Below, piece by piece: positions 11,103 to 40,668 of a DNA stretch of 64,000 nucleotides. Within the stretch, counting starts at the first letter, position 1. Each line of letters begins with the position of its first letter. The translations under genes were made by a program, and so were the position numbers. The notes beneath the pieces are model-generated. The model was given only the letters and a program-made list of their open reading frames with translations. It was not told the DNA's origin and did not search any database. This stretch comes from Candidatus Nealsonbacteria bacterium (GTDB lineage: Bacteria; Patescibacteriota; Minisyncoccia; Minisyncoccales; CAZKCU01): NCBI GenBank assembly GCA_047456305.1, contig CP179888.1:445307-509306 (forward strand). The letters are read 5' to 3'.

Positions 11103-11114
11103 TCTTGCGTTTTT

Positions 11115-11309: not shown

Positions 11310-11345
11310 AAGGTCGCAGGAAACAATAAAATCGTCAAACTAATT

Positions 11346-11522: not shown

Positions 11523-11574
11523 ATAAAAAAGAGATTCTAAAAGGTTGAATAATTAAAAATTAAGTTTTAAAAAA

Positions 11575-12063
11575 ATGGGAACATTCGTAAATTTTAGAAC
11601 CGAAAAAGACCCCGAAGAAAAATCTTTAGCACACCATTTAAAAATGGGAAAAAAGCGACAAGGCACTTCTCCTCCAGAGGAGCTTTACAAATTGGAAAAT
11701 CACCGAGAGGAAAAAAAAGTTGAACAAGCAAAAAATTTTGACCAGATAATAAATTCCCAAATGGGAGTCAGATTTGGGCAAGATGAGAAAATTTATCACA
11801 ATTTGTCAGAACTGAAAGTTGATCAAAAACTGAAAAGGGATTTTGGACTTTCCGAATTTGATGATAGCAATGAAGTGGAATTATCTGATTCCGAAGAAAA
11901 AATTGATGAGCAAAAATTTGAAAGGCAAACTGGTTTCAATTTGGCAGAATTAGAAGAAGATGAGCAACAAAAACAAAACTTGATGGAGGATTTTCAAGAA
12001 TTAGAAGACGAAAAGTTATGGGGTTCGCCAAGCGATTTGGAGGTTGAATTTGAAGAGGGATAA
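11575..12063 (+). CDS. hypothetical acidic protein
   Basis: ORF track; AAAAGGTTG motif upstream. It contains one inverted iteron-like TGACCAGAT sequence. Confidence 0.45.
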   Translation: MGTFVNFRTEKDPEEKSLAHHLKMGKKRQGTSPPEELYKLENHREEKKVEQAKNFDQIINSQMGVRFGQDEKIYHNLSELKVDQKLKRDFGLSEFDDSNEVELSDSEEKIDEQKFERQTGFNLAELEEDEQQKQNLMEDFQELEDEKLWGSPSDLEVEFEEG

Positions 12064-12080
12064 GAATTCAATGAGAGAGT

Positions 12081-12109
12081 TTGAAAAGCAGTTAAAATTC
12101 GCCTATAAA
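12081..12109 (+). promoter_or_regulatory. sigma-70-like promoter at the start of the ORF-free region
   Basis: TTGAAA, 17 nt spacer, TATAAA. Confidence 0.45.
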
Positions 12110-12115
12110 TAATAT

Positions 12116-12546
12116 ATCAATCCTTAAGAATTAAATTATACCCGGTTCAATCGCTGTTTCTAACTCTCGCCCGAGTTAAAAGCTAAAGAATTTCACCCAA
12201 GCTTTAAGTTTGGGTGAGAGTTGGAGGCAGTTTTGAGAGCCAGATGTTTTGACAGGGGGTTGGGTTTGACCACCTCTTCAAAATTGTCCTTTTACTCTGG
12301 CTTTCTAAACTGCCACGCGCAACTCACCAAAACAAAGTCCCATTCAAAAAATGGGGCTTTCTTCCTATTTCCCCTGACGGGAAATAATTGATTTATTCCC
12401 CATCACGGGAAATGGGCTTTCTTCCTCAAAGGGGACACCCGGGTGGCTTCAAAAACACTTCTCAAGCCATTTTAAGGCACTTCTGGGCTTATTTTAAGGA
12501 AGAAAGGATACAATCCCCGAGAAGCCCCTTTAAAAGGGCTTTTTAT
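12116..12546 (+). ncRNA. candidate ~430-nt structured non-coding RNA of the element
   Basis: no ORF on either strand; end-to-end pairing UCCUUAA(12121)/UUAAGGA(12495); long imperfect helix 12218-12243/12297-12325; several local hairpins; weak terminator at 12522-12546. Confidence 0.35.
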
Positions 12547-13190
12547 ATATAGAAACATAATTTAAAAGACCTGTATCAGACAGAGGTTGACAAACCAATG
12601 TAAAAGTGTGCTTATATTTGGTATTGGCTGACTAACATTACATAGAGGAGGACGGGGAGTTTCATTATTTAATTCTCTGTTTTTTTTATGGCTTTTGTTT
12701 TAAATGTCTATTCCTTGTAAGCTACGAACTATTGAATACAGCACAAAAACAAAAGATGTTTTTGGCTTGTTTCTGGTCTTTGTTTCTCGGCATTTGAGAT
12801 TGGCGTTTCTGGGCTTCGGGTCGTGGCTATGAGCTTTCACTTAATATCCTTTGTTTTTAAATATCAATAGCTCTGTGCTCTGTGCTTTGGTATCCCTGTT
12901 ATTTGCCTTTTAGTATTATTAAGCGCCAAAAAAAAACAAGCTTGGCGGATACAAAAGAGCCCATTTTATTATTGGGCTTAACTGCTCAACCCACTTAACA
13001 GCTCATACTCAATTTGTTCTTAACGAATGAATGCGCGAAATTGCTCAATAAAATGTTTTTTGAAAAATCCTGATTTTTGAAAACAAGGTTCAAAAGTTTT
13101 TTAAGAATTAAATTCAAATGGTGGAACTATGTTTCAAAAATGGTCTGTATTTTAGCCCTGAAAGTTATCCACAATTAAGCTCATTTGTGC

Positions 13191-13219
13191 TTGACAGAGT
13201 GCTTGGCTTTTGCTAAAAT
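13191..13219 (+). promoter_or_regulatory. near-consensus sigma-70 promoter
   Basis: TTGACA, 17 nt spacer, TAAAAT; preceded by TTATCCACAATTA at 13165-13177. Confidence 0.55.
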
Positions 13220-13374
13220 AGAGGTGTAAAGAGAGTTCATTTTAAAGGTCTATTTCAACAGCTTGCGAGATTTTTATTTTGGTATATTATTAAAATTGGT
13301 GGTTCTTCATTGAATCGCTAAAGTCCCTCGTTCTGCTCGCAAGCTGTCGGGGGGCTTTTAATTAAAATAAAACT

Positions 13375-13524
13375 ATGACTATTTCAGATTTCGTAAAAGA
13401 TTTAAAAAACGAAGGACTAAACAGAAAGGAGGCATTGGAGATTTTTGAAAGCTGGCTTGACGAGAATATCGGACTTGTCTTAAGAGATGAGGCGATCAAG
13501 TTATTTGAAAAACACTATGAGTAA
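13375..13524 (+). CDS. hypothetical 49-aa protein
   Basis: hand-translated MTISDFVKDLKNEGLNRKEALEIFESWLDENIGLVLRDEAIKLFEKHYE. A 36-aa hydrophobic ORF (13517-13627) overlaps its end. Confidence 0.3.
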   Translation: MTISDFVKDLKNEGLNRKEALEIFESWLDENIGLVLRDEAIKLFEKHYE

Positions 13525-13715
13525 AAAAATCCTTTATTGGGTCGGTCTGATTTTACTGGCAATGATTATCTTTCCCTTTTTCTACGGCTTCATCTACCTG
13601 TTTCTGTTGGCTGATTTAATTATTTAGTCCCTTCACTCCGTCAGCACCTTTGGTGCTGATCGGTGAGAGGATTAAAACTTAATGGCTGATGTCAGGGTCA
13701 GCACTTTAAAAAGCT

Positions 13716-13916
13716 ATGGCTAAAATAAACATTTACTTTCAGGATTTAAATGAAAATGCCCAACAGGAGGTATGGCAAGCTGTAAAAGAAGAATTAGAGG
13801 AAGATATTAAAAATGAGATTGAGTTTCAACCTGATTTAGATCCTCAAACTATTAAATCTGAAACGATTGAAAATCATATAAACTGCCACAATTTTGCCAA
13901 CGAGTTTGTAATATAA
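13716..13916 (+). CDS. hypothetical acidic 66-aa protein
   Basis: ORF track. Confidence 0.4.
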   Translation: MAKINIYFQDLNENAQQEVWQAVKEELEEDIKNEIEFQPDLDPQTIKSETIENHINCHNFANEFVI

Positions 13917-13991
13917 CCAATCAATTCAGCCCTTCAATATCCTGATATTTGGAGGTCTGAAATTGCTTGATTATCAGCTAACAAAAGAACT

Positions 13992-14198
13992 ATGCTAATT
14001 TTCTATACCCAAGTTTCAAATCCCGATAGCGAAAAAAAGAAAAGGTTTTTGAGAATGAAACAAGCCATAGCACGGGAGTTTAAAAGAATGAAAAAGTTTG
14101 ATGAAAAAATGGTAAGCTTGGGACATAAGAAACCGGAAAAACTGATTATGAAATGCGGGCAGAACTTTCTGGCAATCCACCAGTTTAGGAGCGCATAA
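13992..14198 (+). CDS. hypothetical basic 68-aa protein
   Basis: ORF track; Lys/Arg-rich. Confidence 0.35.
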   Translation: MLIFYTQVSNPDSEKKKRFLRMKQAIAREFKRMKKFDEKMVSLGHKKPEKLIMKCGQNFLAIHQFRSA

Positions 14199-14594
14199 TT
14201 TTGCCAATTCTTTTTGGGTCGGTGAGCTTTGAATTCTTGAAGGAGCTTATCTGTTTTAAAAAAACAGAGGAGAAAATCAAAGCGAACCGATGAGGTATGA
14301 GGATTTAGACGGAGGCAAAAATGAAAAAGGGGTTTAGCAAAAGTTAGACCTACCGAACCATAGGAACAGAGGGATATTCTTTCAAGAAAAAACTAACTAT
14401 CCCAAAGCTCTTAATCCGATTGATACATAATTTTTGTTTCAAATCTTTCCAGTAGTATTTGCCGAAGTTTAAAGAGCTGTATCTCTAATAATGGTAAGAT
14501 CCATTCCGAGTAGTCGGTCAAACTATGCTTTTACAATTTCAAGAGTTGGGAGAGCAAAAGAGTTTTTGTTAGTTTTTGCTCTTTTGCTGTCCTT

Positions 14595-14610
14595 GTGAAC
14601 CCAGGTTCAA
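14595..14610. promoter_or_regulatory. second copy of the GTGAACCCAGGTTCA operator-like site
   Basis: 15-nt identity with 10629-10643; ~135 bp upstream of the HTH gene promoter. Confidence 0.45.
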
Positions 14611-14743
14611 TTATCACTATTGACCGACCAAAACCCCATTTTTAAGGATTTAGCCCAAAAACAACGCACCAGATTGCGTTTTAAGAGGATTTGAGGGCTG
14701 GGCGGTGGTTTGATACCCGGTTGCCTGCCTTGATTTTGGGGGC

Positions 14744-14771
14744 TTGACACTATCTCTTGACTTGATAGAAT
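14744..14771 (+). promoter_or_regulatory. sigma-70-like promoter giving a probably leaderless HTH mRNA
   Basis: TTGACA, 16 nt spacer, TAGAAT, ending 6 nt before the ATG at 14778. Confidence 0.5.
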
Positions 14772-14777
14772 GAAATA

Positions 14778-14954
14778 ATGAAAGAAAATATAAAACGAAA
14801 AAAGAAGATTTTGGAATTAAGGGTGAAGGGTTATCAGTTGAAAGAGATCGGGGAAGCTCTTGGAATCTCAAAGCAGAGGGTTCACCAGATTATTAGGCAG
14901 TTTCAAAAAGACCAGCACGATTTGAGGCGCTTAAAACGGAAGAAGATATTATGA
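14778..14954 (+). CDS. 58-aa HTH regulator (sigma-70 region-4/LuxR-like)
   Basis: hand-translated MKENIKRKKKILELRVKGYQLKEIGEALGISKQRVHQIIRQFQKDQHDLRRLKRKKIL. Confidence 0.55.
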   Translation: MKENIKRKKKILELRVKGYQLKEIGEALGISKQRVHQIIRQFQKDQHDLRRLKRKKIL

Positions 14955-15101
14955 CAAAAAAAAAGCCCCCCAGCAGAGAGGAGAGCTAATTGAAAATAGT
15001 TTAATTTAAGCTAATCCAACTCAAAGAAAAATAAGTCAATAAAAATAAAGTCAAAAAATAGTAATTTAATTCACACTTTTATTTTACAAATTTTAAAAAC
15101 T

Positions 15102-16073
15102 ATGTCAAACAAATCTTTAATAATTCCTACAAGTTCAATCAATAATGACCTGATAAATCCTGATGCTTTTAAAAATCAGGAAATCTTGAGTATTGTCATT
15201 GATCCAAAAAAGACCTTCAATTACTTGGACATTTCCTCCGGAAGCCGGGCTGACTACAAATACCGGTTAGGTTTGTTTCTCAACTTTATGAGAAATAAGT
15301 CATTGAGTTTGAATTGCCTGTTGGAATACAAAAGGTATTTGAAGAACTTGATAAATTACAGCACCGCTACAAAAAACCATTACCTCCTTGTGGGCTTGAA
15401 GCTCCTGCGCGAATATCACAGGCAGGGAATTTTAAAAAGAGATATAACTTCCAACATAGAACTTTTTAAAGAAGAAAAGAATAAAATGAAGGTTGAGGAA
15501 TTTAATGAGCAAGAGATGACCAAAATCCTGAATGCCTTAAAGGAATTGCCGAACACAAAAGAGAATAGTCGCCTGAAAGCGATGATGAGCTTGCTGATAT
15601 TTCAGGGCTTGAGATTGATAGAGCTGACAAGGATTGATTACCCTGCTGATGTTGATTTTGGAAATAAAATCATTCAAATTCAAGGAAAGGGTAAGGAATA
15701 CAAACAACCGGTAGATTTACACCCCAAAACTATTGCCGAGCTGAAAAAGTATGTTTCAACCAATGGAATTAAAAGCGGGTCATTGTTCTTTTGTAAGAGC
15801 AACCGCAACCTCCACCAGAAAATAACCACCTCTGGAATTAGGAAGATTATCAAGAAATTTTTGAAGAGTTTGGGAATAGACAGGAATATCCACGCATTCA
15901 GGCACTCCTTTTGCGGTATGCTGGCTCTCAACAAAAACCTGACTACGCTTGATATGGCGCAGTTCTCACGACACTCAAATCCTGCTCAATTACAGGCGTA
16001 TATTGACAGAAGAAAATTCAAATCCAAAATTCCCGAATTCTATAAATGCTTTAGAGGGTGGAATATGAGATGA
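15102..16073 (+). CDS. tyrosine recombinase / integrase (XerC/D-like)
   Basis: GLRLIEL (Arg), HAFRHSF (His-x-x-Arg) and RHSNPAQLQAY (His...Tyr) catalytic motifs. Confidence 0.85.
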   Translation: MSNKSLIIPTSSINNDLINPDAFKNQEILSIVIDPKKTFNYLDISSGSRADYKYRLGLFLNFMRNKSLSLNCLLEYKRYLKNLINYSTATKNHYLLVGLKLLREYHRQGILKRDITSNIELFKEEKNKMKVEEFNEQEMTKILNALKELPNTKENSRLKAMMSLLIFQGLRLIELTRIDYPADVDFGNKIIQIQGKGKEYKQPVDLHPKTIAELKKYVSTNGIKSGSLFFCKSNRNLHQKITTSGIRKIIKKFLKSLGIDRNIHAFRHSFCGMLALNKNLTTLDMAQFSRHSNPAQLQAYIDRRKFKSKIPEFYKCFRGWNMR

Positions 16074-16126
16074 TTGAACCAAGTTCACTTAAAAGGTCGT
16101 TTAATCAAAATTAACTAACTAATAAA

Positions 16127-16489
16127 ATGAAAGAAGAAAAAGAGATTTTACAAGAGATATTAAAATTAGAAAAGGAAGAAAAAGAAGTTGATGAAAAAAT
16201 GGAAAGTGGAAGAGTTGAAAAATTGAATATATTAAAAGGAAAATTAAATGCTTTAAGGTGGGCATTGGGAACAGGTTTTCCTACCATAGACCCATATAAG
16301 GGAATGAAAACAAACAAACAGGTCAGCCACAAAATCAAGGAAATGTCAGCAATGAAGTTCCAGATTGAACCTCTTGAATGTATGAAAGATGCCCTTCGCT
16401 GGGTTTTAGGAGAAACAGATGAAACATATTTTTTTAATGATTGGTTCAAGGAACAACTGAAAGTAGCTGAAAGGGAAAAGGATAATTAA
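16127..16489 (+). CDS. hypothetical coiled-coil protein
   Basis: ORF track; internal repeat ALRWALG / ALRWVLGE; AAAAGGTCG motif 27 nt upstream. Confidence 0.5.
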   Translation: MKEEKEILQEILKLEKEEKEVDEKMESGRVEKLNILKGKLNALRWALGTGFPTIDPYKGMKTNKQVSHKIKEMSAMKFQIEPLECMKDALRWVLGETDETYFFNDWFKEQLKVAEREKDN

Positions 16490-16583
16490 CTTTTACTGAA
16501 TTCCTGATCTGGAAATCGGGGGTTCAGATAAGAGCTGATTTTAAAAGGTCGCAAGAAAATAAAAATTAAAATAAAATTATATT

Positions 16584-16772
16584 ATGGTTAAAGAATTAGA
16601 CAAGCGAAGATTAGAACTTTTGAATTCTTTAAATGAATATTTTTTGAATAACAAAGGAGAATTGAAGGTGTTGATAAATTTTCTTGATGAATCAGCAACG
16701 GGGTGGCGGGATACTCCCTCACCGCTTTTAGAAACCTTGGTTGCTCTGGCAAAGGGATTGGAGTTAAAATAG
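16584..16772 (+). CDS. hypothetical 62-aa protein
   Basis: ORF track; AAAAGGTCG motif 33 nt upstream. Confidence 0.4.
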   Translation: MVKELDKRRLELLNSLNEYFLNNKGELKVLINFLDESATGWRDTPSPLLETLVALAKGLELK

Positions 16773-16825
16773 AGGTAGAGATAAAATTTCAAAGGTCGTT
16801 TAATAAATTAAAATAAAATAAAATT

Positions 16826-17455
16826 ATGGGAACAGAAGAAGAAAAGAAAAAAATTGAGGAAGAAGAAAGAATACGAGCAGAAGCAAGGGTTAAGGCAGAA
16901 AAAGAGCTTAAGCAAAAAGAACAAAAGAAAAAGGGTATAGGTTGTTTGGTTGTTTTAGGGCTTATTATACTTTTTGTCGTTATTATTTCTATCGGTGGCA
17001 AAGAGGATAAAAAAGCAGAACCTACCTTAACCGAACCTCCTGCTAAATCAGAACCAGTACCTCTTACTCCTGAACAAAAACTGGAATCGGCTTATATCCA
17101 ATCTTTCACAGCGATCAACAAAAATGTCGTTGAGGCATCAAATTCTTTAGGTAATCTGGTTGGAGTTAAATCTCCTATCTTATGGACAGAAGAAGAAATA
17201 ATGCTGGTGGCATTCTCAACCGTAATGCTTGAAGAATCCTACACACAGGCGAAAGAGCTTGAACCTCCCGAAAAGTTTGAAGCCGTCCATTCCCTTTTCC
17301 TATCCGGATTGTCCAAATATGCCGAAGCTATGCCACTTTTGAGAGATGGCATAGATTATTCCAATGCTGATAAAATCAACCAATCAACCGATCTTCTTAT
17401 TGAAGGAGTGAAATTTTACGAACAAGCCACAGAGAAATTAAAACTTCTTCAATAA
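16826..17455 (+). CDS. hypothetical membrane-anchored protein
   Basis: ORF track; charged N-terminus, one TM helix, extracytoplasmic domain; AAAGGTCG motif upstream. Confidence 0.5.
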   Translation: MGTEEEKKKIEEEERIRAEARVKAEKELKQKEQKKKGIGCLVVLGLIILFVVIISIGGKEDKKAEPTLTEPPAKSEPVPLTPEQKLESAYIQSFTAINKNVVEASNSLGNLVGVKSPILWTEEEIMLVAFSTVMLEESYTQAKELEPPEKFEAVHSLFLSGLSKYAEAMPLLRDGIDYSNADKINQSTDLLIEGVKFYEQATEKLKLLQ

Positions 17456-17538
17456 ATTTACGAACCCAAATAAAACCAGAGACCGGATAAGCAAAAAAAA
17501 AGGTCGTTTAGTAAATTAAATTAAAATAAAATAAAATT

Positions 17539-17787
17539 ATGAGACCTATTTTTTGGGGCTTAATCTGTTTCCTGATTGGAATGGTTGGCTGGATTGCTTT
17601 TAGTGTTATAGGTGGTCTTGGAGAAGGAATTACTGGAGAAGCTGATCCTACATTCAAAGCTTTGGTGAGCTTTTTTGGAATGATATTCTTTTTCAGCTTG
17701 CCGGTGGCAATTATCTTTGAGATTATTCGCTGGGCAAGAAAGAGAAAGAGAAGGAAAAGAGAAGGAGAGCTAAACTTGAAAAATTAA
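17539..17787 (+). CDS. hypothetical two-TM membrane protein
   Basis: ORF track; AAAAGGTCG motif upstream. Confidence 0.5.
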   Translation: MRPIFWGLICFLIGMVGWIAFSVIGGLGEGITGEADPTFKALVSFFGMIFFFSLPVAIIFEIIRWARKRKRRKREGELNLKN

Positions 17788-17797
17788 AATTCTAACT

Positions 17798-18322
17798 ATG
17801 GCAAAAGAAAGATTAAGCATTTTACAAAAAGCCATTATCACTACCTTAAGAGCTTTAGATGAAGTAGAATATAAAACTAATAAAAAGCTATTCAAAAAGA
17901 AAGCCAAACAACCTCCATACTGGCACAAATTAAGAAAGACAACTGGTGATGGAAGTATGGTGGGATCAGGTTGGATTACAGATAGGGGTTTGAAATTCTA
18001 TGTAGAGAAATGTTTGAAAGCACACTACAAACTTCCGGAATTAGATTTTAGCAATTTAGACAAAGTCAATGCTCAAGAGGAAGAAAGAATGAAGCACCCC
18101 AAATACAATTATTTTGACCATAAGCCGACAGGAAAAGTTAGTCAGCGACTTGGCTATAATATCTATCGTTCCTCCTCTTTTGATATTTCATTCAGCAGGA
18201 GTTTAAAGAGCTTATGGGAAAAGAAGTTTATAGAATGTGATTTTATTAAAAATTGGAGGAATAAGGTAGCTCAAATAAGAACAATAAAACTAACAGAGAA
18301 GGGTCTTAATGTTAAGATGTGA
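17798..18322 (+). CDS. hypothetical protein, MAKERLS paralog 1
   Basis: N-terminus MAKERLSILQKAII shared with the next ORF; C-terminal KLTEKGLNV is suggestive of a winged-helix domain. Confidence 0.5.
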   Translation: MAKERLSILQKAIITTLRALDEVEYKTNKKLFKKKAKQPPYWHKLRKTTGDGSMVGSGWITDRGLKFYVEKCLKAHYKLPELDFSNLDKVNAQEEERMKHPKYNYFDHKPTGKVSQRLGYNIYRSSSFDISFSRSLKSLWEKKFIECDFIKNWRNKVAQIRTIKLTEKGLNVKM

Positions 18323-18367
18323 GCTTCCATAATTTAACAATAAGAAATTTGAAATAGAATTGTAAAT

Positions 18368-18823
18368 ATGGCAAAAGAAAGGTTAAGCAAACTTCAGAAG
18401 TGGATAATAAGGAATTGTAATCGCTGTAAATTCTCTGGCGGGGAAGCAACTGCTATGAGTCGCAAAGACATATTGGGGTTTTTTGCCTTTGATTATGAAG
18501 CCAATGAAGAGTATGAAGAAAGAAAAAACAGAGCAGAGGCAACCATAAGCAGGAGTATAAAAAACTTAAGGTGTAAGGGTTTTATAGAAGAGTTTAGTCG
18601 TGCTATCAAAAGAGGATTTTATATGAAAAAGGAAAATGGTATCTCTATAATGGAAGAACAAATAAAGGAAACTGGTTGTTTGGATAAAAAAGAAGGAAGA
18701 GAAGAAATAAAACAATCTTTTGGGAATTCAAGATTACCTGAATATACAAAATTGATTGAATTGACTGATAAAGGAATAAAAAAAAGGAAAGAACTCTTAA
18801 AGTTAAGTTCTGACAATAGCTAA
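18368..18823 (+). CDS. hypothetical protein, MAKERLS paralog 2
   Basis: N-terminus MAKERLSKLQKWII; C-terminal ELTDKGIKKRKELL. Confidence 0.5.
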   Translation: MAKERLSKLQKWIIRNCNRCKFSGGEATAMSRKDILGFFAFDYEANEEYEERKNRAEATISRSIKNLRCKGFIEEFSRAIKRGFYMKKENGISIMEEQIKETGCLDKKEGREEIKQSFGNSRLPEYTKLIELTDKGIKKRKELLKLSSDNS

Positions 18824-18910
18824 AACTTAACAATAAGAATTAGTTGATATTCTGAAACCCTGTTAAAATAGAAAAAGAGAAAAAAATAAAAAAGTTAATA
18901 AGAAAAAATT

Positions 18911-20572
18911 ATGACCAAAGTAGCAATATACATCCGGGTCTCAACCCAGCGTCAAGAAAAAGAAGAAACAGAAAAAACTCAACTATCTAAATTAAAAGAA
19001 TATTGTAAAAAAAATGACTATCAGATAGTCAAAGAATATTCTGATGTTTGTTCAGGTGCTTATCTATCAAGAACCGCCTTAAACCAATTAAGAGAAGATG
19101 TGAAGAAAGGAATCTTTGATGTTATTTGTGTTTATGCTCTTGATAGATTATCCAGAAAATTAGGACATCAAATAGCATTGCTTGATGAATTTGAAAAAGA
19201 AGCAAAAGTTAAAGTGGAAAGTTTGGAAGAAAAATTTGAAGATAGTCCTGAAGGAATGTTAAACCGAAATATGAGAGGAGCTTTCGCTGAATATGAAAGA
19301 TATAAAATAGCCAAGCGTCTAATGGACGCAAAATGGAGCAAAGTGAAGGAAAAAAAGCTAATTGGTTGTTATCCTCCTTTCGGCTATACTAATGTTAAAA
19401 AGACAGATGACACGCCGGCTCATTTTCTAATAAACCCAAAAGAAGTTTCAATAGTTAGGTTGATATTTAAGATTTATCTTGAAACAAATAGCACTTATCA
19501 AACAGCTATTCAACTTAAGGAAATGGGAATTAAAGGCAGAGGCAGAGGCAAGGGCAAAAATGGTAAGGACAAGCCGACATCTCTTCACCCAAAAACAATC
19601 CGAGAAATGCTGAAGAATGAATCATACATTGGTAATTGGTATTATGGCAAAACCTATTGTTGCGAGGCAAAGTATCACATTAAAGAGGAAAGGAAGCATA
19701 AAATAACCGGAAGAAAAATTAGACCCAAGTCAGATTGGAAACTGGTGAAAATACCAGAAATTATTGATAAAGAAATTTTTGATAGAGTTCAAGAAAAAAT
19801 GAATAAAAAGAAAAGTGATTATTTAAAACCATCAAAAAAGCATTTTTATCTTTGTCAAAGTTTAATTAAGTGTATTCATTGTAAAAGGACTTATAGTGGT
19901 CATAAGCAAACTAACAGAAAAAGAAAAAAACCTTTCTTCACTTATTATTGTGGGCAAAAATATCCAAGAAGAAATAAGCTTGATGAAGTTGCCTGTCCCT
20001 CAAGGTCAATGGGAAGAGACAGATTGGATAATGCTGTTTGGGATTATGTTAAATCTTTGGTTAGTGATGAGAATAAAGTCAAAAAGGGAATAAAAAAATT
20101 AGCAGAGAAAAGAGAAAAAGATAGGTCATTTAATCAGAAAGTTTATAATTCTCTGATAGCTGAAAAAGGGAAACTGGAAAAAAAGAAGCAGAGATTTATA
20201 GATCTCTATGGCGATGAAAACTTCACTCAAGAAGAGATAGATAATAAAGTTTCAGAAGTCAACAGCTTACAAGAAAATTTGAATAATCAAATAAGAGAAG
20301 TAGAAAAAGAATTTCAAAAGATAGAAAATCTTAAACTAATAGAAAAGGAAATTGAAAAACTTTGTTTTAGATATAAAACTAAAATAAAAAAGAATCCAAG
20401 CCCAGAATTAAAGAAATTTATTGTCAGAAGTTGGATAAAAGAAATAAATATACTTGATGACGGAAGAGTTTTTATCAAAGCAAAATTGCCGGAATTAGAA
20501 GAAATTTCAAGGGAGAAATTAGAATTTCCCTCTCAAAAGCGTATTCCAGCACAAACTCCTCAATCTTTATAG
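18911..20572 (+). CDS. large serine recombinase (integrase)
   Basis: VAIYIRVSTQRQ (catalytic Ser), YALDRLSR, recombinase domain, Cys-rich zinc-ribbon region (CIHC...C...C) and C-terminal coiled coil; ends in attR. Confidence 0.9.
   Translation: MTKVAIYIRVSTQRQEKEETEKTQLSKLKEYCKKNDYQIVKEYSDVCSGAYLSRTALNQLREDVKKGIFDVICVYALDRLSRKLGHQIALLDEFEKEAKVKVESLEEKFEDSPEGMLNRNMRGAFAEYERYKIAKRLMDAKWSKVKEKKLIGCYPPFGYTNVKKTDDTPAHFLINPKEVSIVRLIFKIYLETNSTYQTAIQLKEMGIKGRGRGKGKNGKDKPTSLHPKTIREMLKNESYIGNWYYGKTYCCEAKYHIKEERKHKITGRKIRPKSDWKLVKIPEIIDKEIFDRVQEKMNKKKSDYLKPSKKHFYLCQSLIKCIHCKRTYSGHKQTNRKRKKPFFTYYCGQKYPRRNKLDEVACPSRSMGRDRLDNAVWDYVKSLVSDENKVKKGIKKLAEKREKDRSFNQKVYNSLIAEKGKLEKKKQRFIDLYGDENFTQEEIDNKVSEVNSLQENLNNQIREVEKEFQKIENLKLIEKEIEKLCFRYKTKIKKNPSPELKKFIVRSWIKEINILDDGRVFIKAKLPELEEISREKLEFPSQKRIPAQTPQSL
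20563..20570. other. attR core (ATCTTTAT)
   Basis: identical to 8356-8363; MBL homology resumes immediately. Confidence 0.7.
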
Positions 20573-21279
20573 TAAGCCCTCAGAGGCATCAGATTCTGAT
20601 TGATGGAGGACCGGGGCCTGCTATTTTAGAAAAATTGGCAACTGAGATGCCTTTTTATGATCGCTCTTTGGATTTAATTGTTTTAACTCACCCTGAACAT
20701 GATCACATTGCAGGTTTAATTGAGGTTCTAAAAAGATACAAAGTAGATTATATTTTGTGGACTGGCATTATTAGAAATACCTCTGAATATGAAGAATGGT
20801 TAAAGACCATTGCCCGAGAGAATGCTCAAATAAAAATAGCTAAAGCTGGCCAGAGAATAATCGCATCGAGAATGGTTCTTGATATTTTACATCCTTTTGA
20901 AAATCTTGAGGACAAAAAAGTCAAAAATAGCAATAATACCTCTATAATTTCCCATCTAATTTTTGGTAATAACTCTTTTTTATTCACTGGCGATGCTTAC
21001 AAATCAGTAGAGAAAAAACTTATTGAAAGCAAGACCAATATTGATTCTGATGTTTTAAAAGTCGGTCATCATGGGAGTAAAACTTCAAGTGCAAAAGATT
21101 TTATTGAAAAAGTATCTCCGGCAATTGCTGTAATTCAATGTGGCAAAAACAATCCTTATGGTCATCCCCGCCCTGAAACTCTTGAAACTTTAGCCAAGTA
21201 TGATATAAAAATTTTAAGAACTGATTTAGATGGCGACATAAAAATAATTTCCGACGGCACAAAAATAAAAATAAAATAA
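20563..21279 (+). pseudogene. 3' fragment of the ComEC/Rec2-like MBL-fold gene
   Basis: open frame reads IFIVSPQRHQILIDGGPGPAILEKL...LTHPEHDHIAGL...GDA...HHGS. The ORF-track start at 20635 is an artefactual TTG. Confidence 0.8.
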
Positions 21280-21451
21280 TTCGCTCGGCAGGACATTCGG
21301 GGATAAACCGCTCGGCAACGAAGTTTTCAAAGTACCGACCCTCAAAATCCCAGCGAGATTTTGGGGTCTGCGTTCTCGGCTCGTCGTCCGCCTTCGGCGG
21401 AACCATGCCGACGAGCCTCCGAAAGCTACTTTGAAACTTGTTACCTCGCTT
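21280..21451 (+). repeat. family A structured repeat, copy 1
   Basis: CGCTCGGCA boxes, outer stem AAGTTTTCAAAGTA/TACTTTGAAACTT, hairpin with CCCAGCGA loop, nested hairpin then ACCATGCC, ends TTACCTCGCT. Confidence 0.75.
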
Positions 21452-21492
21452 ATTATTCGTATATTCGTACTTATTCGTAATTCGTAGGGTTT

Positions 21493-23812: not shown

Positions 23813-23942
23813 TTGACATTTTTAGATTTATTTTATAATATAAAACATAAGCGCAAAGCGCTTTATATTTTTTAATTTTGATATTTGATTTTTAATTTTG
23901 ACTAAGCCCAAGCGAAGCGAAAGCGAGCGAGGGTGAAGGAAT

Positions 23943-24934: not shown

Positions 24935-27109
24935 ATGCCTCGTTTATATCCAATTGAAAAGGTCAAAGATATAGGAATTATTGCTCATATTGATGCCGGA
25001 AAAACAACCGTGACAGAACGGGTGCTTTTTTATACCGGAATTTCCCATAAAATTGGAGAAGTTCACGATGGCCAAGCTATTATGGATTGGATGGAGCAAG
25101 AAAGAGAAAGAGGGATTACTATTACCGCTGCTGCCACCACCTGTTTTTGGACTCCACAAGATTTGGACGCCACCCTCCCGCCACCCCGAAAAAAAGATTA
25201 CAACCCACCCACCGCGTCCTCCCATTCGCCTGTCGGCGAACGGGTCCCTAATGAATATAGAATAAATATCATTGATACTCCAGGCCATATTGATTTTACT
25301 GCCGAAGTTCAAAGGTCTCTAAGGGTCTTAGATGGAGCAGTTGTGGTTTTTGATGGGGTGGCGGGAGTAGAGCCTCAGTCAGAAACTGTTTGGCGTCAGG
25401 CTGATACCTTTAAAATTCCCAGAATCTGCTTTATAAACAAAATGGACAGAATAGGAGCCTCTTTTGAAAAAAGTTTAGAATCTATTTTGGAAAAATTATC
25501 TCCGAATGCTCTAGCCCTTCAGCTACCAATTGGCGAAGAAGATAAATTTGAAGGAGTGATTGATCTTTTAAATCTGAAAGCTCTAAAATTTGAAGGTGAT
25601 TTCGGTCAAATAGTAAAAGAAGAAGATATTCCCGCTAATTTATTGGAAAAGGCAAAGGAATGGCGGGCAAAATTAGTTGAGAAAATTGTTGCTGAAGATG
25701 AAAGACTCTTGGAGAAATTTTTAGCTAAAAAAGAAGTTTCTATTGATGAGCTAAGAAAAGTTTTAAGAAAAGCTGTTTTAGACTACAAACTCGTTCCAGT
25801 TTTTTGCGGAGCAGCTCTCAGAAATATAGGAATCCAACCCCTCTTAGATGGAATTTGTTATTATCTTCCCAGTCCTTTAAATCTTCCACCGGTTAAGGGA
25901 ATTGATCCTAAAGATGGAAAAGAAATTGAAAGAAAACCGGAGGATTCAGAAAAATTTTCTGCCTTGGTCTTTAAAGTTGCGGATGACCCTTATGTTGGAA
26001 CCCTAACCTATTTTCGAGTTTATTCTGGTTTCTTAACAAGAGGCTCTTATTTATTAAACTCAACAACAGGAGAGAAAGAAAGGATTGGCCGGATTTTAAG
26101 AATGCATGCTTCGGAAAGAGAAGAGGTAAAAGAAATTTTCACCGGGGATATTGCTGCCACTATAGGGCTGAAAAAAACGTCCACCGGACATACTCTCTGT
26201 GAGATTAATAATCCAATTGTTCTTGAAAAAATTAGTTTTCCTGAACCGGTTATCTCTATACGCATTGAGCCAAAAACCCGGGCTGACCAGGAAAAGATGA
26301 GTTTGGCTCTAAGAAGATTGTCAGAAGAAGACCCCACTTTTAAAACCAAAAGTGATTTAGAAACTGGAGAGACGATTATTTCTGGAATGGGAGAATTGCA
26401 CCTTGAGATTATTGTTGATCGTATGAAAAGAGAATTTAAAGTGGAAGGCCTGGTGGGAAAACCTCAGGTAGCTTATAAGGAGACTATCAAACAGACTGCA
26501 GAGGCTGAAGGAAAATATATTAGACAATCGGGAGGACGAGGTCAATATGGTCATGTTTGGCTAAAGGTTTTACCAAAAAATAGGGGAGAGGGATTCGAAT
26601 TTATTGATGAAATCAAAGGCGGAATTATTCCCAAAGAATTTATTCCGGCAGTAGGAAAGGGAGTAAAGGAAGCTATAGAGAAAGGAATTCTGGCTGGATA
26701 TCCGATGGTTGATATGGAAGTTAGGCTGTATGATGGTTCTTTCCATGATGTAGATTCTTCAGAGGTCGCTTTTAAAATTGCAGGTTCTATAGCTCTTCAA
26801 GAAGCTTCCAAGAGAGCAAAACCAGTGATCCTCGAGCCAATTATGCGGCTTGAGGTTATTGTTCCTGAGGAATTTTTTGGTGATACTATCGGAGATTTAT
26901 CAGCCAGAAGGGGAAAAATTGAAGAGACTAAAGATAGATTAAATCTAAAAGTTATTGATGTTATTGTTCCTTTAGCTGAAATGTTTGGTTATGCCACTGC
27001 CCTACGTTCCTTGACTGAAGGCAGAGGAACCTTTACAATGGAATTTAATTACTACGAGGAAGTACCGGCAAATATTGCTCAGGAAATTATCGAAGGGCGA
27101 AGAAGATAA
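24935..27109 (+). CDS. fusA: elongation factor G, with a ~30-aa GC-rich insertion in the G domain
   Basis: [26 protein letters not shown]. Start taken at the ATG at 24935. Confidence 0.95.
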
Positions 27110-27190
27110 ATCTTCTTCTTGACCCTTCGCTAACGCTCGGGTGGCCGAAGAAGATAAATCTTCTTTTTTTCCCTTCGCTATCGCTCGGGA
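27091..27190 (+). repeat. two tandem small hairpin-box elements overlapping the fusA stop
   Basis: CGAAGGG-c-GAAGAAGA-taaa-TCTTCTTC-ttga-CCCTTCGCTAACGCTCGGG, then GAAGAAGAtaaaTCTTCTT...CCCTTCGCTATCGCTCGGGAG. The fusA TAA lies in the first hairpin loop. Confidence 0.8.
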
Positions 27191-27228
27191 GAAAGAGGAG
27201 ATGATTTTTATCCACAATTAGAGAACCA

Positions 27229-27257
27229 TTGACTTTATTTTAAAAATTTAATAAAAT
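27229..27257 (+). promoter_or_regulatory. sigma-70-like promoter upstream of tuf
   Basis: TTGACT, 17 nt spacer, TAAAAT; preceded by TTATCCACAATTA at 27208-27220. Confidence 0.5.
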
Positions 27258-27353
27258 AATAATATAGTTAATCATATAAATAAACATTTAAACATAATAA
27301 CATTTAAACAAATATGTTTAGATGCTAAAATGCTTAAATGTTAAAAGGAAATT

Positions 27354-29070: not shown

Positions 29071-29694
29071 ATGGCAAAGTTTATTTTAGGATTAAAATTA
29101 GGAATGAGTCAAATCTTTGATGAGAAAGGAAATGTTATTCCGGTAACAGTTATTGAAGCAGGTCCCTGTTATGTTACCCAAATAAAGACAAAGGAAAAAG
29201 ATGGATATTCAGCTGTTCAGATTGGTTTTGGTGAAGCAAAAAAAATAACCAAAGCTTTGGCTGGCCATCTTAAAGGAGCAAAAGTTGGAAAATTGATGTT
29301 TTTGAGAGAATTTCGAAACGAAACACCTAAAATTGATGATAAAGAGCTAAAAATAAAGGATAAGATTGATGTTTCAATTTTTAAAGAAGGGGATAAAGTT
29401 AAAATTTCTGGAATCTCAAAAGGCAAAGGTTTTCAGGGAGCAGTTAAAAGATGGGGATTTTCAGGAATGGGGGCTAGCCATGGAGTAAAGCATGAGCACC
29501 GAACCTTGGGTTCGGTCGGAAGCAGCTTTCCGGAAAGAGTAATCAAGGGCAAGAAGATGCCCGGTCGGATGGGAAACGAAAGAGTAACGGTCAAAAATTT
29601 AAAAGTAGTTAAAATTGATAAAGAAAATAATTTATTAGCAGTAAAAGGAGCTGTGCCGGGTAGAAAGGGTATATTATTAGAAATTAGAGGATAA
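29071..29694 (+). CDS. rplC: 50S ribosomal protein L3
   Basis: G.KLGMSQIFDE.G...PVTVIE; FQG..KRWGF.G. Confidence 0.95.
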   Translation: MAKFILGLKLGMSQIFDEKGNVIPVTVIEAGPCYVTQIKTKEKDGYSAVQIGFGEAKKITKALAGHLKGAKVGKLMFLREFRNETPKIDDKELKIKDKIDVSIFKEGDKVKISGISKGKGFQGAVKRWGFSGMGASHGVKHEHRTLGSVGSSFPERVIKGKKMPGRMGNERVTVKNLKVVKIDKENNLLAVKGAVPGRKGILLEIRG

Positions 29695-29838
29695 TCGCTC
29701 GGCAAGCTGGTTTCAGGGTCGTTCGCTCGCCCCAGCGAGGCTCGCTCACTCAGGTAAAGACCTTCGCTCTTCGAGCTAAAGCTCGAAACCATGCCCGCTC
29801 AGGCCTTTAACTGTCCCTGAAACCACTGCCTCGCTTAA
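29695..29838 (+). repeat. family A structured repeat, copy 2 (between rplC and rplD)
   Basis: CGCTCGGCAA..., outer stem TGGTTTCAGGG/CCCTGAAACCA, CCCAGCGA, hairpin TTCGAGC-taaa-GCTCGAA then ACCATGCC, ends CTGCCTCGCT. Confidence 0.7.
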
Positions 29839-29858
29839 GGGAAGGGGATTAAAAAATT

Positions 29859-30975: not shown

Positions 30976-31755
30976 ATGACACAAAAAAAATTACTCACAA
31001 AAAAAGAACCGGAAAAAAAGCTGCTAAAATTTATAAAAAAGAAAGCAGGAAGGGCTCGTTCAGGCCGGATAACTGTTCGTCATCGGGGGAAAGGAGCAAA
31101 AAGACTTTATAGAATCATTGATTTCGGACAGGAAAAACTCGGTCTCCAGGCTAAAATTGTTGCTTTAGAATACGACCCTTACAGAACCAGTTTTATTGCT
31201 CTTTTGGAATACCAGGATGGAGAAAAAAGATACATTTTAGCCCCCCAAAATTTAAAGATTGGGGATGAAATTATTATTTCAGAAAAAGCTGAAATCCGGC
31301 CGGGGAATCGAATGAAACTAAAAAATATTCCAGTAGGAACTCAGCTCTATAATATTGAGATTGAGCCTGGCAAAGGAGGAAAGTTGGTCAGGGGAGCAGG
31401 AACTACTGCAAGAATCTTGGCTCAGGAAGGAAAGTTCGTCCATTTGGAGATGCCCTCTTCAGAAATTAGGCGGATTTCTCAAGAATGTTTTGCCTCAATT
31501 GGGATGGTTTCCCGACCCGAGCATAAATTTACTACTCTTTCAAAGGCAGGCAGAGCTCGCCATATGAGACGGAGGCCAACTGTTCGAGGAACAGCTATGG
31601 TTCCTGCTGACCATCCTCATGGAGGAGGTGAAGGTAAAGCCCCAATTGGATTAAAACACCCAAAGACTCCCTGGGGAAAACCAGCTCTAGGGAAAAAAAC
31701 AAGAAAGAAAAAGTGGACGGATAAATACATTATTAAAAGAAGATCAAAGAGATAA
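30976..31755 (+). CDS. rplB: 50S ribosomal protein L2
   Basis: [17 protein letters not shown]; HPHGGGEG. Confidence 0.95.
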
Positions 31756-31797
31756 ATCTCTTTTCTCCCTTCGTTCCGCTGTGTGGCGGAACTCGGA
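31745..31797 (+). repeat. small hairpin-box element overlapping the rplB stop
   Basis: AAAGAGA-taaa-TCTCTTT with the rplB TAA in the loop, then CCCTTCG-TTCCGC-tgtgt-GCGGAA-CTCGGAG. Confidence 0.65.
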
Positions 31798-34756: not shown

Positions 34757-34926
34757 CAGCTTTTGGAAGATAATTTTTGGTACACGCAAATTTTTCCAGC
34801 GAAAATTTGCTCCTACTCGCGAATTGCTCGCCGCGAAGCGGCGAGACCAAGCCAATTCGCTGCGGACTCCACCCACCCGCCACCCTCCTAAGAGGCACCT
34901 GTCCCAAAAATTACTTCCCTCGCTTA
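34757..34926 (+). repeat. family A structured repeat, copy 3 (between rplN and rplX), carrying an extra CCACCC-rich ~33-nt insert
   Basis: about 90 percent identical by eye to copy 5, except for CTCCACCCACCCGCCACCCTCCTAAGAGGCACC at 34868-34900. Confidence 0.8.
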
Positions 34927-36090: not shown

Positions 36091-36600
36091 ATGACTGACC
36101 CTATCACCGATATGCTCAATCGAATAAGAAATGCTCAAGCTGTTTTAAAAGAAACGGTTGATATTCCTTTTTCTAATTTAAAATATGAAATTTCTAAAAT
36201 TTTAGAAAAGGAAAATTTTATTGAGAAGGTCGAAAAAAAAGGAAGGAAAAGTAAAAAATTCATTAAAATTAGCTTAAAATACTTGCCCTCCCGAGCGATA
36301 GCGAAGGGGAAAGAAGAAAGCTTGCTTTCTTCGCCCTCCCGAGCGACAGCGAAAGGGGAAGAAAAGGATAAATCCTCTTCGCCCTTCCAAGTTTTGCAAG
36401 ATAAAATAAAGGTGGCAGCAATTTCTGGTTTAAAAAGAATTTCCAAACCAGGCCAAAGGATTTACCTTTCAGCTAAAAAAATGCGGAGAGTGAGAGGGGG
36501 TTATGGAATAGCAATAATCTCAACACCAAAAGGATTGATGACTGATAAAAAAGCGAGGAGGCAGAAATTGGGAGGGGAAGTTTTATGTGAAGTCTGGTAA
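36091..36600 (+). CDS. rpsH: 30S ribosomal protein S8, with a ~35-aa repeat-derived insertion
   Basis: DPI.DML.RIRNA at the N-terminus and GGE.LC.VW at the C-terminus; 169 aa against ~130 aa typical. Confidence 0.9.
   Translation: MTDPITDMLNRIRNAQAVLKETVDIPFSNLKYEISKILEKENFIEKVEKKGRKSKKFIKISLKYLPSRAIAKGKEESLLSSPSRATAKGEEKDKSSSPFQVLQDKIKVAAISGLKRISKPGQRIYLSAKKMRRVRGGYGIAIISTPKGLMTDKKARRQKLGGEVLCEVW
36286..36388 (+). repeat. two tandem 48-nt small hairpin-box elements inside rpsH, in frame
   Basis: CCCTCCCGAGCGATAGCGAAGGGGAAAGAAGAAAGCTTGCTTTCTTCG followed by CCCTCCCGAGCGACAGCGAAAGGGGAAGAAAAGGATAAATCCTCTTCG. Confidence 0.85.
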
Positions 36601-37172: not shown

Positions 37173-37215
37173 ACCCGAGCGTAGCGAAGGGTGAAGAAGA
37201 GGATTTATCCTCTTT
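37173..37215 (+). repeat. small hairpin-box element (between rplF and rplR)
   Basis: ACCCGAGCGTAGCGAAGGGTGAAGAAGAGGATttatCCTCTT. Confidence 0.75.
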
Positions 37216-37222
37216 GACTAAA

Positions 37223-39913: not shown

Positions 39914-40573
39914 ATGAAAAAACCTTTAGTGATAATTCTTCTGGGGCCGCCGGGTTCTGGTAAAGGAACCCAGGCCAAACTGCTTGTTAAAAAATTTGGG
40001 TTCGAATATTTCGGGTCAGGTGATGCTCTCAGAAATAGACAAAAAGCAGCTGATTTTACTGGAAAGAAGCTTATAAAAGTTATGAATTGCGGGGAGTTAG
40101 TTCCTTCTTTTGTGATTTCTAAGCTCTGGATAGATAAATTAGAAAAATTTGGGCAGAGGACAAAAACCAACGGTTTTGTTTTTGATGGTACTCCAAGAAA
40201 AATCATTGAGGCTAAATTTTTTGATGAAGCTTTGATTTGGTACGAATTGCAAAAAAAAGTAAAATTTATCTTCATTAATATTTCAAGAAAAGAATCGCTC
40301 CATCGTTTAATAAGAAGAAGGATATGTAAAAAATGTGGCAGACAAATTCCTTGGATTGGGAAATTTAAGTCACTTAAAAAATGCGACAAATGCGGAGCAA
40401 AACTTATAGTTAGAGCTGATGATGAACCAAAAGCCATAAAAAAGCGCTTGGAGGAATTTAAAAAAGAGGTGATACCAGTAATAAATTATTACAAAAAACA
40501 AAGAAAATTAATTGAAATAAATGGAGAGCGAAGTATTGAGACTATTTTTCAAGATATTTTAAAAGCGCTATAG
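39914..40573 (+). CDS. adk: adenylate kinase (Zn-lid type)
   Basis: LLGPPGSGKGTQA; DG.PR; CKKCG...CDKCG. Confidence 0.95.
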   Translation: MKKPLVIILLGPPGSGKGTQAKLLVKKFGFEYFGSGDALRNRQKAADFTGKKLIKVMNCGELVPSFVISKLWIDKLEKFGQRTKTNGFVFDGTPRKIIEAKFFDEALIWYELQKKVKFIFINISRKESLHRLIRRRICKKCGRQIPWIGKFKSLKKCDKCGAKLIVRADDEPKAIKKRLEEFKKEVIPVINYYKKQRKLIEINGERSIETIFQDILKAL

Positions 40574-40668
40574 TCGAGAGAAGAAGCTTGCTTCTTCGAA
40601 CCCATCTGCGCTAGTCGATGAAGCTAAAGCTTCATCTCCATCTTCGCTTCCACAAGTGGAAGCTCGAT
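40571..40668 (+). repeat. three consecutive box-hairpin units (between adk and map)
   Basis: TCGAGAGAAGAAGCttgcTTCTTCGAACCC; TCGATGAAGCtaaaGCTTCATC; CTTCGC-TTCCAC-aa-GTGGAA-GCTCGA. Confidence 0.6.

Follow-up and report, generated by a model that had tools for sequence, protein, structure and literature searches.

Repetitive extragenic palindromes (REP sequences) carrying a GTAG or CGTC tag are characterized by compensatory changes in the stem, by G-T pairs and by non-complementary di- or trinucleotides between the stem and the loop (PMC3733652, Di Nocera et al.). Their GC-flanked loops can be extended to inner stems of 6 to 7 bp, and they form dimers and clusters (PMC3733652). They lie just downstream of open reading frames (ORFs), where their termini give stop codons, and are also found inside genes, including uvrB and tRNA synthetase genes, with RPE-4 and RPE-6 of Rickettsia among them (PMC3733652). 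The Rickettsia palindromic elements (RPEs) are the classic in-frame palindromic inserts (PMC10969869). We analysed a small repeat, made of a hairpin followed by a conserved box, in a stretch of 64,000 nucleotides (the window) from Candidatus Nealsonbacteria, a member of the candidate phyla radiation (CPR; Patescibacteria) with a G+C content of about 35%. Between 24 and 55 kb the window holds the ribosomal operons str, S10, spc and alpha together with neighbouring genes, all on the + strand. In the literature searched we found no description of such repeats in CPR/Patescibacteria.

The hairpin-plus-box repeat is a real family in the window. Its box, CCCTTCGCTNNCGCTCGGG, was matched 7 times with no more than three mismatches, while 0.02 matches were expected from shuffled sequences, and a repeat finder joined all the sites named in the original prediction. 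A covariance model, R1, was built from 22 units of the window and its relatives and was run on the window with filters off. It detected 15 full-length units (E < 1e-3) and two partial ones (7852-7894 on the - strand, and 40576-40602), distributed over 12 sites between 7.8 and 55 kb. Ten full-length units are on the + strand (7861, 27094, 27142, 31741, 40612, 42266, 43409, 46875/46840, 49866 and 49914) and five on the - strand (36290, 36338, 37174, 46688 and 54876). R1 found 76 units in 252 kb of CPR DNA; the 15 units of the 64 kb would extrapolate to about 150 in 640 kb, a figure that reflects the density of the window only. Searches against Rfam returned one tRNA in the window, nothing in 13 other loci and, at E values up to 10 around 27000-27300, chance matches of the miRNA type only; a known RNA family was rejected, since none of these scans matched one.

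Comparison with the original prediction showed that each copy it had listed is present at, or within a few bases of, its position, and that one copy, at 42266-42322, had been overlooked. The three copies it had counted from 40571 do correspond to three hairpins, but these belong to one degenerate and one full unit. The fragment it had noted upstream of rpsL (23908-23935) is indeed AGCGA-rich and box-like, but it was not picked up by R1 and is kept here as a candidate only. Its general view was supported, namely a small palindromic repeat of REP or RPE type, in a CPR genome of tiny size, that furnishes genes with their ends and stop codons. The in-frame intragenic copies, the presence/absence polymorphism, the short target duplications and the second hairpin within the box, all described below, are additional to it; of these, the in-frame copies give the family its strongest likeness to RPEs.

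Each unit consists of two modules, H, a GA-rich hairpin of 8 bp and 20 nt with the pattern GAAGAnnn-TAAA-nnnTCTTC, and B, a box of 19 to 35 nt with the pattern CCCTTCG-(4-nt loop or second variable hairpin)-CTCGGG. The unit starts with four variable nucleotides followed by CGAAG and ends with CTCGGG, then TA, TG or AG. Module B itself folds: within a CCC/GGG stem, a conserved TTC and TC face each other unpaired (GA/GAA when the opposite strand is read), and G-C and C-G pairs follow. The inner part of B is either a 4-nt loop (TNNC) or a variable stem of 5 to 7 bp (TTTCA/TGAAA, TTCCGC/GCGGAA, TTCCAC/GTGGAA, TTTAA/TTAAA or CCCGC/GCGGG). Folding reproduced the two hairpins, with z-scores of -3.5 to -4.4. 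As the original prediction had proposed, the hairpin is variable while the boxes are kept: in the 22 units, H was paired at 96% over its 8 pairs, five of which had changed on both sides. In the alignment of the 76 units, which was fitted to R1, 97% of the cells of H were paired, 125 cells showed double changes as against 30 in shuffles, and pairing collapsed when the partner columns were slid. The stem of H contains two or three G-C pairs only; G-U pairs are tolerated in the stems, wobble pairs occur on both strands, and A.C mismatches are equally common. By the sizes of H and B and their compensatory stem variation, the modules resemble REP sequences, which are imperfect palindromes of 20 to 40 bp with a conserved stem-loop. 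An unpaired GTAG or CGTC tag was not present at the unit end, GTAG following the unit in a few copies only.

The two modules were also found in mosaic arrangements. The intergenic composite copy at 7852-7918 (+) has the order box(-)-H-box(+), that is, a reverse box CCGAGCCGCAGGCGAAG, the hairpin GAAGAAAAC-AGA-GTTTTCTTC and a forward box CCTTCGC-TTTCATAAATGAAA-GCTCGG with a second hairpin, and it is enclosed by an outer inverted repeat, TAGATACC/GGTATCTA (z = -4.4; 31.9 bits on the + strand and 15 bits on the - strand). Tandem H-B arrays are also present, and the tpiA end carries H-B(+) in three relatives and H-B(-) in a fourth. Tandem and alternating-orientation combinations, as in bacterial interspersed mosaic elements (BIMEs), therefore occur in this family, with further clusters in the S19-L22 spacer of relative L004. 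Inserts of the box only were observed as 24 nt within the glycosyltransferase gene of L001 and L004 and as a box remnant in the S8 gene of L127 and L128. Terminal inverted repeats were found only in composites, namely that at 7852-7918 and a 44-nt insert of L006 (CCCTTCG...CGAAGG), and the basic unit has none. The commonest unit length is 48 nt; variants with the second hairpin are mostly 57 nt by the R1 boundaries, and lengths of 45, 46 and 55 nt were also seen.

The positions of the units were then compared between relatives. The syntenic region was taken for five relatives by means of their S8 proteins; these fall into two clades and are 84-92% identical overall to the window. At least 16 sites in about 20 kb of the str/S10/spc operons had a unit present in some and absent in others of the six genomes, each of which has its own set of units. 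Both units at the fusA end are missing from L001; the units at the ends of rplB, adk and the glycosyltransferase gene and the unit inside alaS were found only in the window. At 43409-43456 the window is longer than L001 by exactly 48 nt. Conversely, the tpiA-end unit is present in L001, L004, L126 and L128 and not in the window, and L004 has units within the genes for L3 and L18. In the rplF-rplR spacer the window carries a 47-nt unit on the - strand (37174-37220; 62.6 bits) while L004 carries a unit in the opposite orientation. Contigs of the same populations, 99.7-99.9% identical, still differ by pieces of 44 and 102 nt. The 44-nt piece, a very recent insertion, is missing from L004 and L005; in L006 (7467-7510 of that contig) it forms a box(+)/box(-) palindrome where the S14 gene stops, TAA-CCCTTCGATAAACTCAGGG-TTAT-CCTGAGCTAGCCGAAGGA-TAA, with TAA on both sides. 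The 102-nt piece is part of the S19-L22 cluster and is missing from L005. A deletion remnant of the 5' arm, AGGCGAAGAGAAC, is retained in L004 where L128 carries the whole unit. Because both close relatives and strains as similar as these differ in their units, we conclude that the element is gained and lost.

The flanks of the units contained more short duplications than expected by chance. The unit is conserved from CGAAG onward, whereas its four leading bases differ from copy to copy (AGGG, AGCG, TAGT, TGGT and others). The 48-nt unit at 43409-43456 (+; 71.7 bits), which is nested in another repeat family, is flanked by AGCG on both sides, and the empty site of L001 has a single copy. The unit at the tpiA end is flanked by AGGT...AGGT in L128 and by GGTTGA...GGTTGA in L126, the empty site of the window having one GGTTGA. 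GCCCT occurs three times around the units of the S8 gene (in the left flank, after unit 1 and after unit 2), and TAGTCGA occurs twice at adk. A match of the flanks at five or more of six positions was observed for 16 of 75 units (5.5 expected). Among the 56 non-tandem units, 4 matched exactly over all four positions, where 0.66 would be expected (P about 0.002). The simplest reading is that an element of 44 nt together with a duplication of 4 bp would make up the 48 nt, which is 16 codons. Since intergenic copies are also exactly 48 nt long (at 43409, and at the tpiA end in relatives), the frame-neutral length would be a property of the element and not only the result of a survival filter.

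Comparison of gene ends with and without a unit indicated, from the predicted C-termini, that rplB, adk and the glycosyltransferase gene have lost their native tails to the unit and take their stop codons from it. The rplB end carries a 57-nt unit (31741-31797, +; inner hairpin TTCCGC/GCGGAA; z = -3.8) with the TAA (31753-31755) in the loop of H; RplB ends with IIKRRSKR in the window and with IIQRRRKKKK or RRHKKK when the unit is absent, and the old tail, AAAAAGAAATAA, is left downstream of the unit. The TAG stop of adk is given by a degenerate unit at 40571-40611 (+), only part of which is detected by R1, with a TAGTCGA start, a hairpin GAAGAAGC/GCTTCTTC and a decayed box; the protein ends with KAL instead of KKISR. 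It is followed by a 57-nt unit with the same TAGTCGA start (40612-40668, +; inner hairpin TTCCAC/GTGGAA; 37.3 bits) that ends 2 nt before the start codon of map. The 57-nt unit in the spacer between the glycosyltransferase gene and galT (42266-42322, +; 19.9 bits) extends the upstream protein by 12 residues, so that it ends with TEKYDETKVSSTASF instead of TKKI or TKKYA; here it is the second hairpin whose loop contains the stop codon. At the tpiA end the relatives with a unit have KGRRR or KGRRG and the window, which lacks it, has KG.

The fusA end is less simple. At 27091-27190 the sequence cgaaGGGCGAAGAAGATAAATCTTCTTCTTGACCCTTCGCTAACGCTCGGG has a near-copy 48 nt further on; the two correspond to canonical 48-nt units in tandem, at 27094-27141 (+; 73.6 bits), with the fusA TAA (27107-27109) in the loop of H, and at 27142-27189 (+; 68.7 bits), with a T run after the hairpin. 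The original prediction had placed the stop codons of fusA and rplB in the hairpin loop, which proved exact, and had regarded identical C-termini in orthologues that lack the element as evidence that the overlap does not derive from it. The tails of rplB, adk and the glycosyltransferase gene differ in the absence of the unit, but FusA ends with EGRRR both in the window and in unit-free L001, so that for this gene the evidence against an element-derived end is formally there. The last 16 nt of fusA in L001, AGGGCGAAGAAGATAA, are, however, those of the 5' half of the canonical unit, and in the window the second unit is immediately followed by AGA AAG AGG AGA TGA (27190-27204, +; RKRR and a stop), probably the displaced native tail, which matches the EGKRR end of the other clade (L004 and L128). 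It looks as if the units were inserted into the tail codons of fusA and as if L001 later deleted all but the 5' arm, and the unit probably supplies the stop codon and tail of this gene. A native tail, not derived from the element, was judged less likely, given the RKRR relic and the identity of AGGGCGAAGAAGATAA to the unit.

Units lie at other gene junctions of the window too. The TAG of infA (49866-49868) is, as predicted, the first triplet of a 48-nt unit of the TAGTCA subfamily (49866-49913, +; 64.2 bits), and the TAGTCA start recurs at 49914, where a 57-nt unit (49914-49970, +; inner hairpin TTTAA/TTAAA; 32.6 bits) abuts the start codon of rpmJ. A contig of 1.2 kb with infA also ends inside a unit and offered no empty infA site for comparison. 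At the alaS end (46840-46911, +; 45.4 bits) the 5' arm of H corresponds to the native codons of the conserved VRRIRA (GCGAAGAATTCG), while the perfectly complementary 3' arm, CGAATTCTTC, and the box come after the stop codon. The unit at 54876-54925 (-; 41.9 bits) lies directly upstream of a gene for a PD-(D/E)XK/Cas4-like nuclease.

Units also lie in frame inside protein-coding genes. Two tandem units of rpsH, at 36290-36337 (-; 69.2 bits) and 36338-36385 (-; 63.4 bits), encode PSRAIAKGKEESLLSS and PSRATAKGEEKDKSSS, respectively, in S8, whose sequence at the insert includes LKYLPSRAIAKGKEE. The length of S8 in this lineage is 169 or 170 aa with two units, 153 aa with one, and 137-141 aa with none or with a box remnant; more distant homologues have 129 aa, and the length differences all lie at one site after LKY, in steps of 16 aa. 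The AlphaFold model of S8 gave a predicted local distance difference test (pLDDT) score of about 31 for residues 67-106, which form the insert, and of about 80 for the N-terminal domain, weak evidence as the alignment was shallow. Within alaS, a unit with a second hairpin (46688-46742, -; 33.4 bits) encodes an insert of 18 aa, ELLKEAKVKKRTKSSSPK, which is missing in three relatives; the AlaRS sequence at the insert reads ...ELLKEAKVKK.... Among the matches listed for other CPR contigs with the box, two of which are from Saccharibacteria, in-frame units were found in the genes for topoisomerase I (TopA, two copies), GatB, FolD, GpsA, HolA, UvrB and a thioredoxin-FTR protein. With the copies in L3 and L18 of relatives, in-frame palindromes are thus found in many unrelated protein genes, as is the rule for RPEs. 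The + and - copies give unrelated peptides.

We consider it probable that these units, in Nealsonbacteria and other CPR bacteria, form a family of mobile palindromic repeats that are small, do not code for protein and belong with the REP/BIME and RPE elements in type. The basic element would be about 44 nt long, with a CGAAGA start, H, a further 3-4 nt and then B; H and B are also present alone, in tandem and with B either way round, which yields the mosaics. Insertion would duplicate about 4 bp of target, so that the commonest gain would be 48 nt and the frame would be kept. With little spacer DNA available, copies would persist only where they are harmless. At gene junctions a + unit offers stop codons in two of the three frames (the TAG of the TAGTC subfamily start and the TAA of the H loop), and an insertion there would cut off the last few codons of the upstream gene and substitute its own; intragenic copies would persist as open frames in tolerant loops, in S8 and alaS of the window and in L3, L18, TopA, UvrB, GatB and others in relatives. 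Loss would proceed by deletion at short repeats, leaving 5'-arm remnants, and recombination would reshuffle the clusters. The evidence leans towards a selfish element, and the hairpins would serve mobilisation, as single-stranded DNA recognised by an enzyme acting in trans, rather than a host function. Formation of the hairpins by snap-back from the target sequence was rejected as a general rule, with complete units carrying unrelated hairpins at 43409, at the tpiA end and inside L18; it may still apply to the alaS end, whose 3' arm corresponds to native codons.

An RNA element that serves the host at gene junctions of long operons, where it might stabilise 3' ends, terminate weakly, be processed by an RNase or control translation start of the next gene, appears unlikely to explain the family, although several of its features fit such a role. 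Ten of the window units are on the + strand versus five on the - strand, most are at gene ends in sense orientation, and the GGGAG or GGGTA at the end of the box lies 2-10 nt from many start codons. Both hairpins fold well and tolerate G-U pairs, the alaS-end hairpin pairs with coding sequence and is kept across clades, one conserved copy lies between convergent genes in jumbo-phage-like contigs, and stabilisation of mRNA and termination of transcripts by REP sequences are known (PMC3733652). However, about 24 units are sense and 16 antisense (about 40%) in the six co-oriented loci, A.C mismatches, equivalent to G-U when the opposite strand is read, occur as often as G-U pairs, and copies lie within S8, L3, L18 and alaS, where termination or cleavage would harm. 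Each close relative has its own set of units, and many junctions do without one. No unit was called an intrinsic terminator on the + strand between 26.5 and 46.4 kb, and intrinsic terminators were rejected on this ground together with the two or three G-C pairs of the H stem and the antisense share. Because of that share, the lack of a sense terminator call in this region and the wobble pairs on both strands, a strand-specific RNA role is disfavoured as the main reason for the units; co-option may have occurred at some sites.

A more local origin is improbable. It would have the units arise without mobility, by slippage, tandem duplication and recombination among GA-rich runs of Lys, Arg and Glu codons, their likeness being due to convergence and gene conversion. 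The tandem pairs 27094/27142, 36290/36338 and 49866/49914, the resemblance of the H arm GAAGAAGA to the Lys/Arg/Glu-rich tails of ribosomal proteins, the coincidence of the 5' arm with coding sequence at fusA and alaS and the block changes in clusters, which look recombinational, would all agree with it. The box of 17-19 nt, however, is not of low complexity, and it is found again, at a constant distance from a hairpin, at sites without relation to each other and in several CPR phyla. Complete 48-nt units without a local template were found at 43409, in L18 of L004 and at the tpiA end, and flank duplications are in excess. Least probable of all is a selected peptide module, in which the 16-residue insert (PSRAxAKGxEE...SSS) would be kept as a useful feature of the protein surface. 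The in-frame S8 inserts are retained in several relatives, in one or two copies, and the - inserts of the window (S8 and AlaRS) use the same frame (GCG AAG ...), but most copies are non-coding, the peptides of + and - copies are unrelated, close relatives differ in copy number, disorder is predicted for the S8 insert, and what is conserved is the pairing of the DNA and not the amino acids.

Several observations weigh against mobile palindromic repeats as the explanation. The copies within the genome are fairly diverged, with a mean column identity of 86%, unlike those of a recent burst. Only a minority of sites have a clear target duplication; at others its length is ambiguous (3-7 bp), and many have none. 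Some sites are old and conserved, such as the alaS end in several lineages and S8 of relatives that are only about 62% identical, where a box-like remnant persists; both hint at co-option or selection. The alaS-end layout is common to the window, L004/L005 and L070 and gives the strongest indication of selection, or of conversion between the arms; arm-to-arm gene conversion could also yield apparently compensatory changes without selection. Among units at gene ends the sense orientation tends to be favoured, and many of them stop a few bases short of the following start codon, so that a role at the RNA level is possible for them. Finally, no Y1/HUH or DDE transposase and no RAYT-like gene (RAYT, REP-associated tyrosine transposase) was found in Pfam scans of 30 window ORFs outside the ribosomal block, and no transposase is listed in the gene tables of the syntenic loci. 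The only recombinases of the Pfam scans were a tyrosine integrase and a large serine recombinase, in a unit-free integrative element at about 8-21 kb.

The observations can also be joined in a bolder reading, which we hold only tentatively and think unlikely as a whole. The family would then represent a new class of frame-neutral mobile module, in which 44 nt plus a constant duplication of 4 bp make 16 codons, that colonises essential genes and whose box is an ancient, widely shared module recognised by a conserved host or phage factor. Its mobilisation would be of a non-RAYT, non-IS200-like kind, because of the lack of a GTAG tag, the short duplications and the box-only copies, which seem to be 5'-truncated.

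The box CCCTTCGCTNNCGCTCGGG, with its 17 specified bases, also occurs in unrelated multi-copy repeats of other phyla, by raw exact-pattern matches, among those listed, which have no control-pattern baseline. It lies in the loop region of long CGTC-type palindromes of Thermodesulfatator (at least five loci) and of gammaproteobacterial metagenome-assembled genomes (at least seven loci), beside long hairpins downstream of tRNA genes (tRNA-terminator hairpins) at eight or more loci of Sphingomonadales, and in Bacteroidia repeats (at least three loci). The forms of these repeats include long palindromes of the type CGTC-ATTGCGAG...GCAATCC and GGGCGTGT-box-TCGG repeats. A hairpin and box with the same spacing were found once per contig in three kinds of viral contigs of low G+C content from IMG/VR; the viral copy, for example AGAGATGAACAAGTTCATCTTAT-CCCTTCGCTATCGCTCGGG, lies between convergent genes of contigs resembling those of jumbo myoviruses. 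One of these kinds encodes a portal protein about 50% identical to jumbo myovirus portals. The products encoded by contig L137 include a portal protein of T4 type, a baseplate protein and a GIY-YIG endonuclease resembling SegE. The phage-type copy had no match in cultured phage genomes.

Other repeats lie among the units in the window. A different, G+C-rich family (ACCCACATCGGAAGGGGGTCGGGGAAACCCTTCGGTTTCCCCG...) is present at 44387-44541 and 50574-50628; its 155-nt copy at 44387 is missing from L001 and L004, and a related copy lies between the S17 and L14 genes of L001. Further families, including that designated family A, are at 29685-29857, 21417-21452, 43457-43562, 54716-54875 and 34765-34829; they share the motifs CGCTCGG, CCTCGCTT and CTTCGCTC and vary by presence or absence between relatives, 123 nt at the rplC end being missing in L001. 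A direct repeat of 80 nt, 91% identical and with an internal tandem TTTTCAATTnATTTCGAT, is found at 54937-55016, where the gene for the PD-(D/E)XK/Cas4-like nuclease begins, and at 61090-61169, between the DNA polymerase III delta' gene and frr. At 56355-58900 an ORF of 623 aa on the - strand overlaps a periodic direct repeat of 420-430 nt on the + strand (58006, 58435 and 58855). In alaS (45083-46870) two more short in-frame inserts, YNPPTTHSPPR and YNPPTTQYS, share the motif YNPPTT; relatives lack them or have other sequences there, and they may represent a further small repeat that lies within genes. The region of about 8000-21300 is probably an integrated mobile element, with the tyrosine integrase at 15102-16073, the large serine recombinase at 18911-20572, a PC4-like protein that binds single-stranded DNA at 10629-10922, many ORFs without a Pfam match and no hairpin-box units. 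Inside it, about 3 kb (12063-15102) contain no ORF longer than 70 aa, although the genome is otherwise dense in genes, and gave no Rfam match at E values up to 0.1.

Few known genomes are as small and as streamlined as those of CPR bacteria. Even so, a proliferating repeat is tolerated here in the most conserved operons and in ribosomal proteins. The family extends the notion of selfish DNA in protein-coding genes from Rickettsia to a very distant, uncultured radiation, and its likely frame-neutral insertion (48 = 16 x 3) would give a simple reason for the invasion of essential genes. In practice, the units make indels of 16 aa in ribosomal proteins that are used in CPR phylogenomics, alter annotated gene ends and break assemblies (the contig of one relative ends inside a unit), and they could be used as strain-level markers. 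The box common to unrelated repeats and phage contigs is a lead to the machinery that handles REP-like hairpins.

Like the RPEs, the units are small palindromes of a reduced genome that lie in frame in unrelated housekeeping genes (including, for RPEs, uvrB and tRNA synthetase genes), add a peptide, occur in intergenic copies too and have no known transposase. The unit is, however, 48 nt (16 aa) long instead of the approximately 100-150 nt of RPE-1 and lacks the CGTC tag of RPE-4 and RPE-6, and the hairpin-plus-box build and the apparent target duplication of 4 bp are features of the present family and not of RPEs. The host belongs to another phylum, likeness of sequence is not expected, and host, unit length and the lack of the tag set the family apart from RPEs. 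The miniature inverted-repeat transposable elements (Correia, ERIC, BOX and RUP) are likewise short non-autonomous repeats with presence/absence polymorphism and occasional in-frame fusion to ORFs, and they have short target duplications, as the present units may have, but the present unit is much shorter, has no terminal inverted repeats in its basic form and has no identified parent insertion sequence. Likeness to REP sequences, BIMEs and REPINs, and especially to enterobacterial GTAG-3, extends to the imperfect palindrome of 20-40 nt with a stem, a non-complementary di- or trinucleotide and a GC-flanked loop that can grow an inner hairpin of 6-7 bp, as the box does. It also extends to the compensatory changes, G-T pairs, mosaics of alternating orientation, sites downstream of ORFs, stop codons and some intragenic copies (PMC3733652). 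The present family differs from these by the lack of a GTAG or CGTC tag, by a box whose outer stem has 3 bp and by its coupling to a separate AT-rich, GA-biased hairpin. This family works like REP/BIME and RPE elements, but without their defining tag and with a hairpin-plus-box build of its own.

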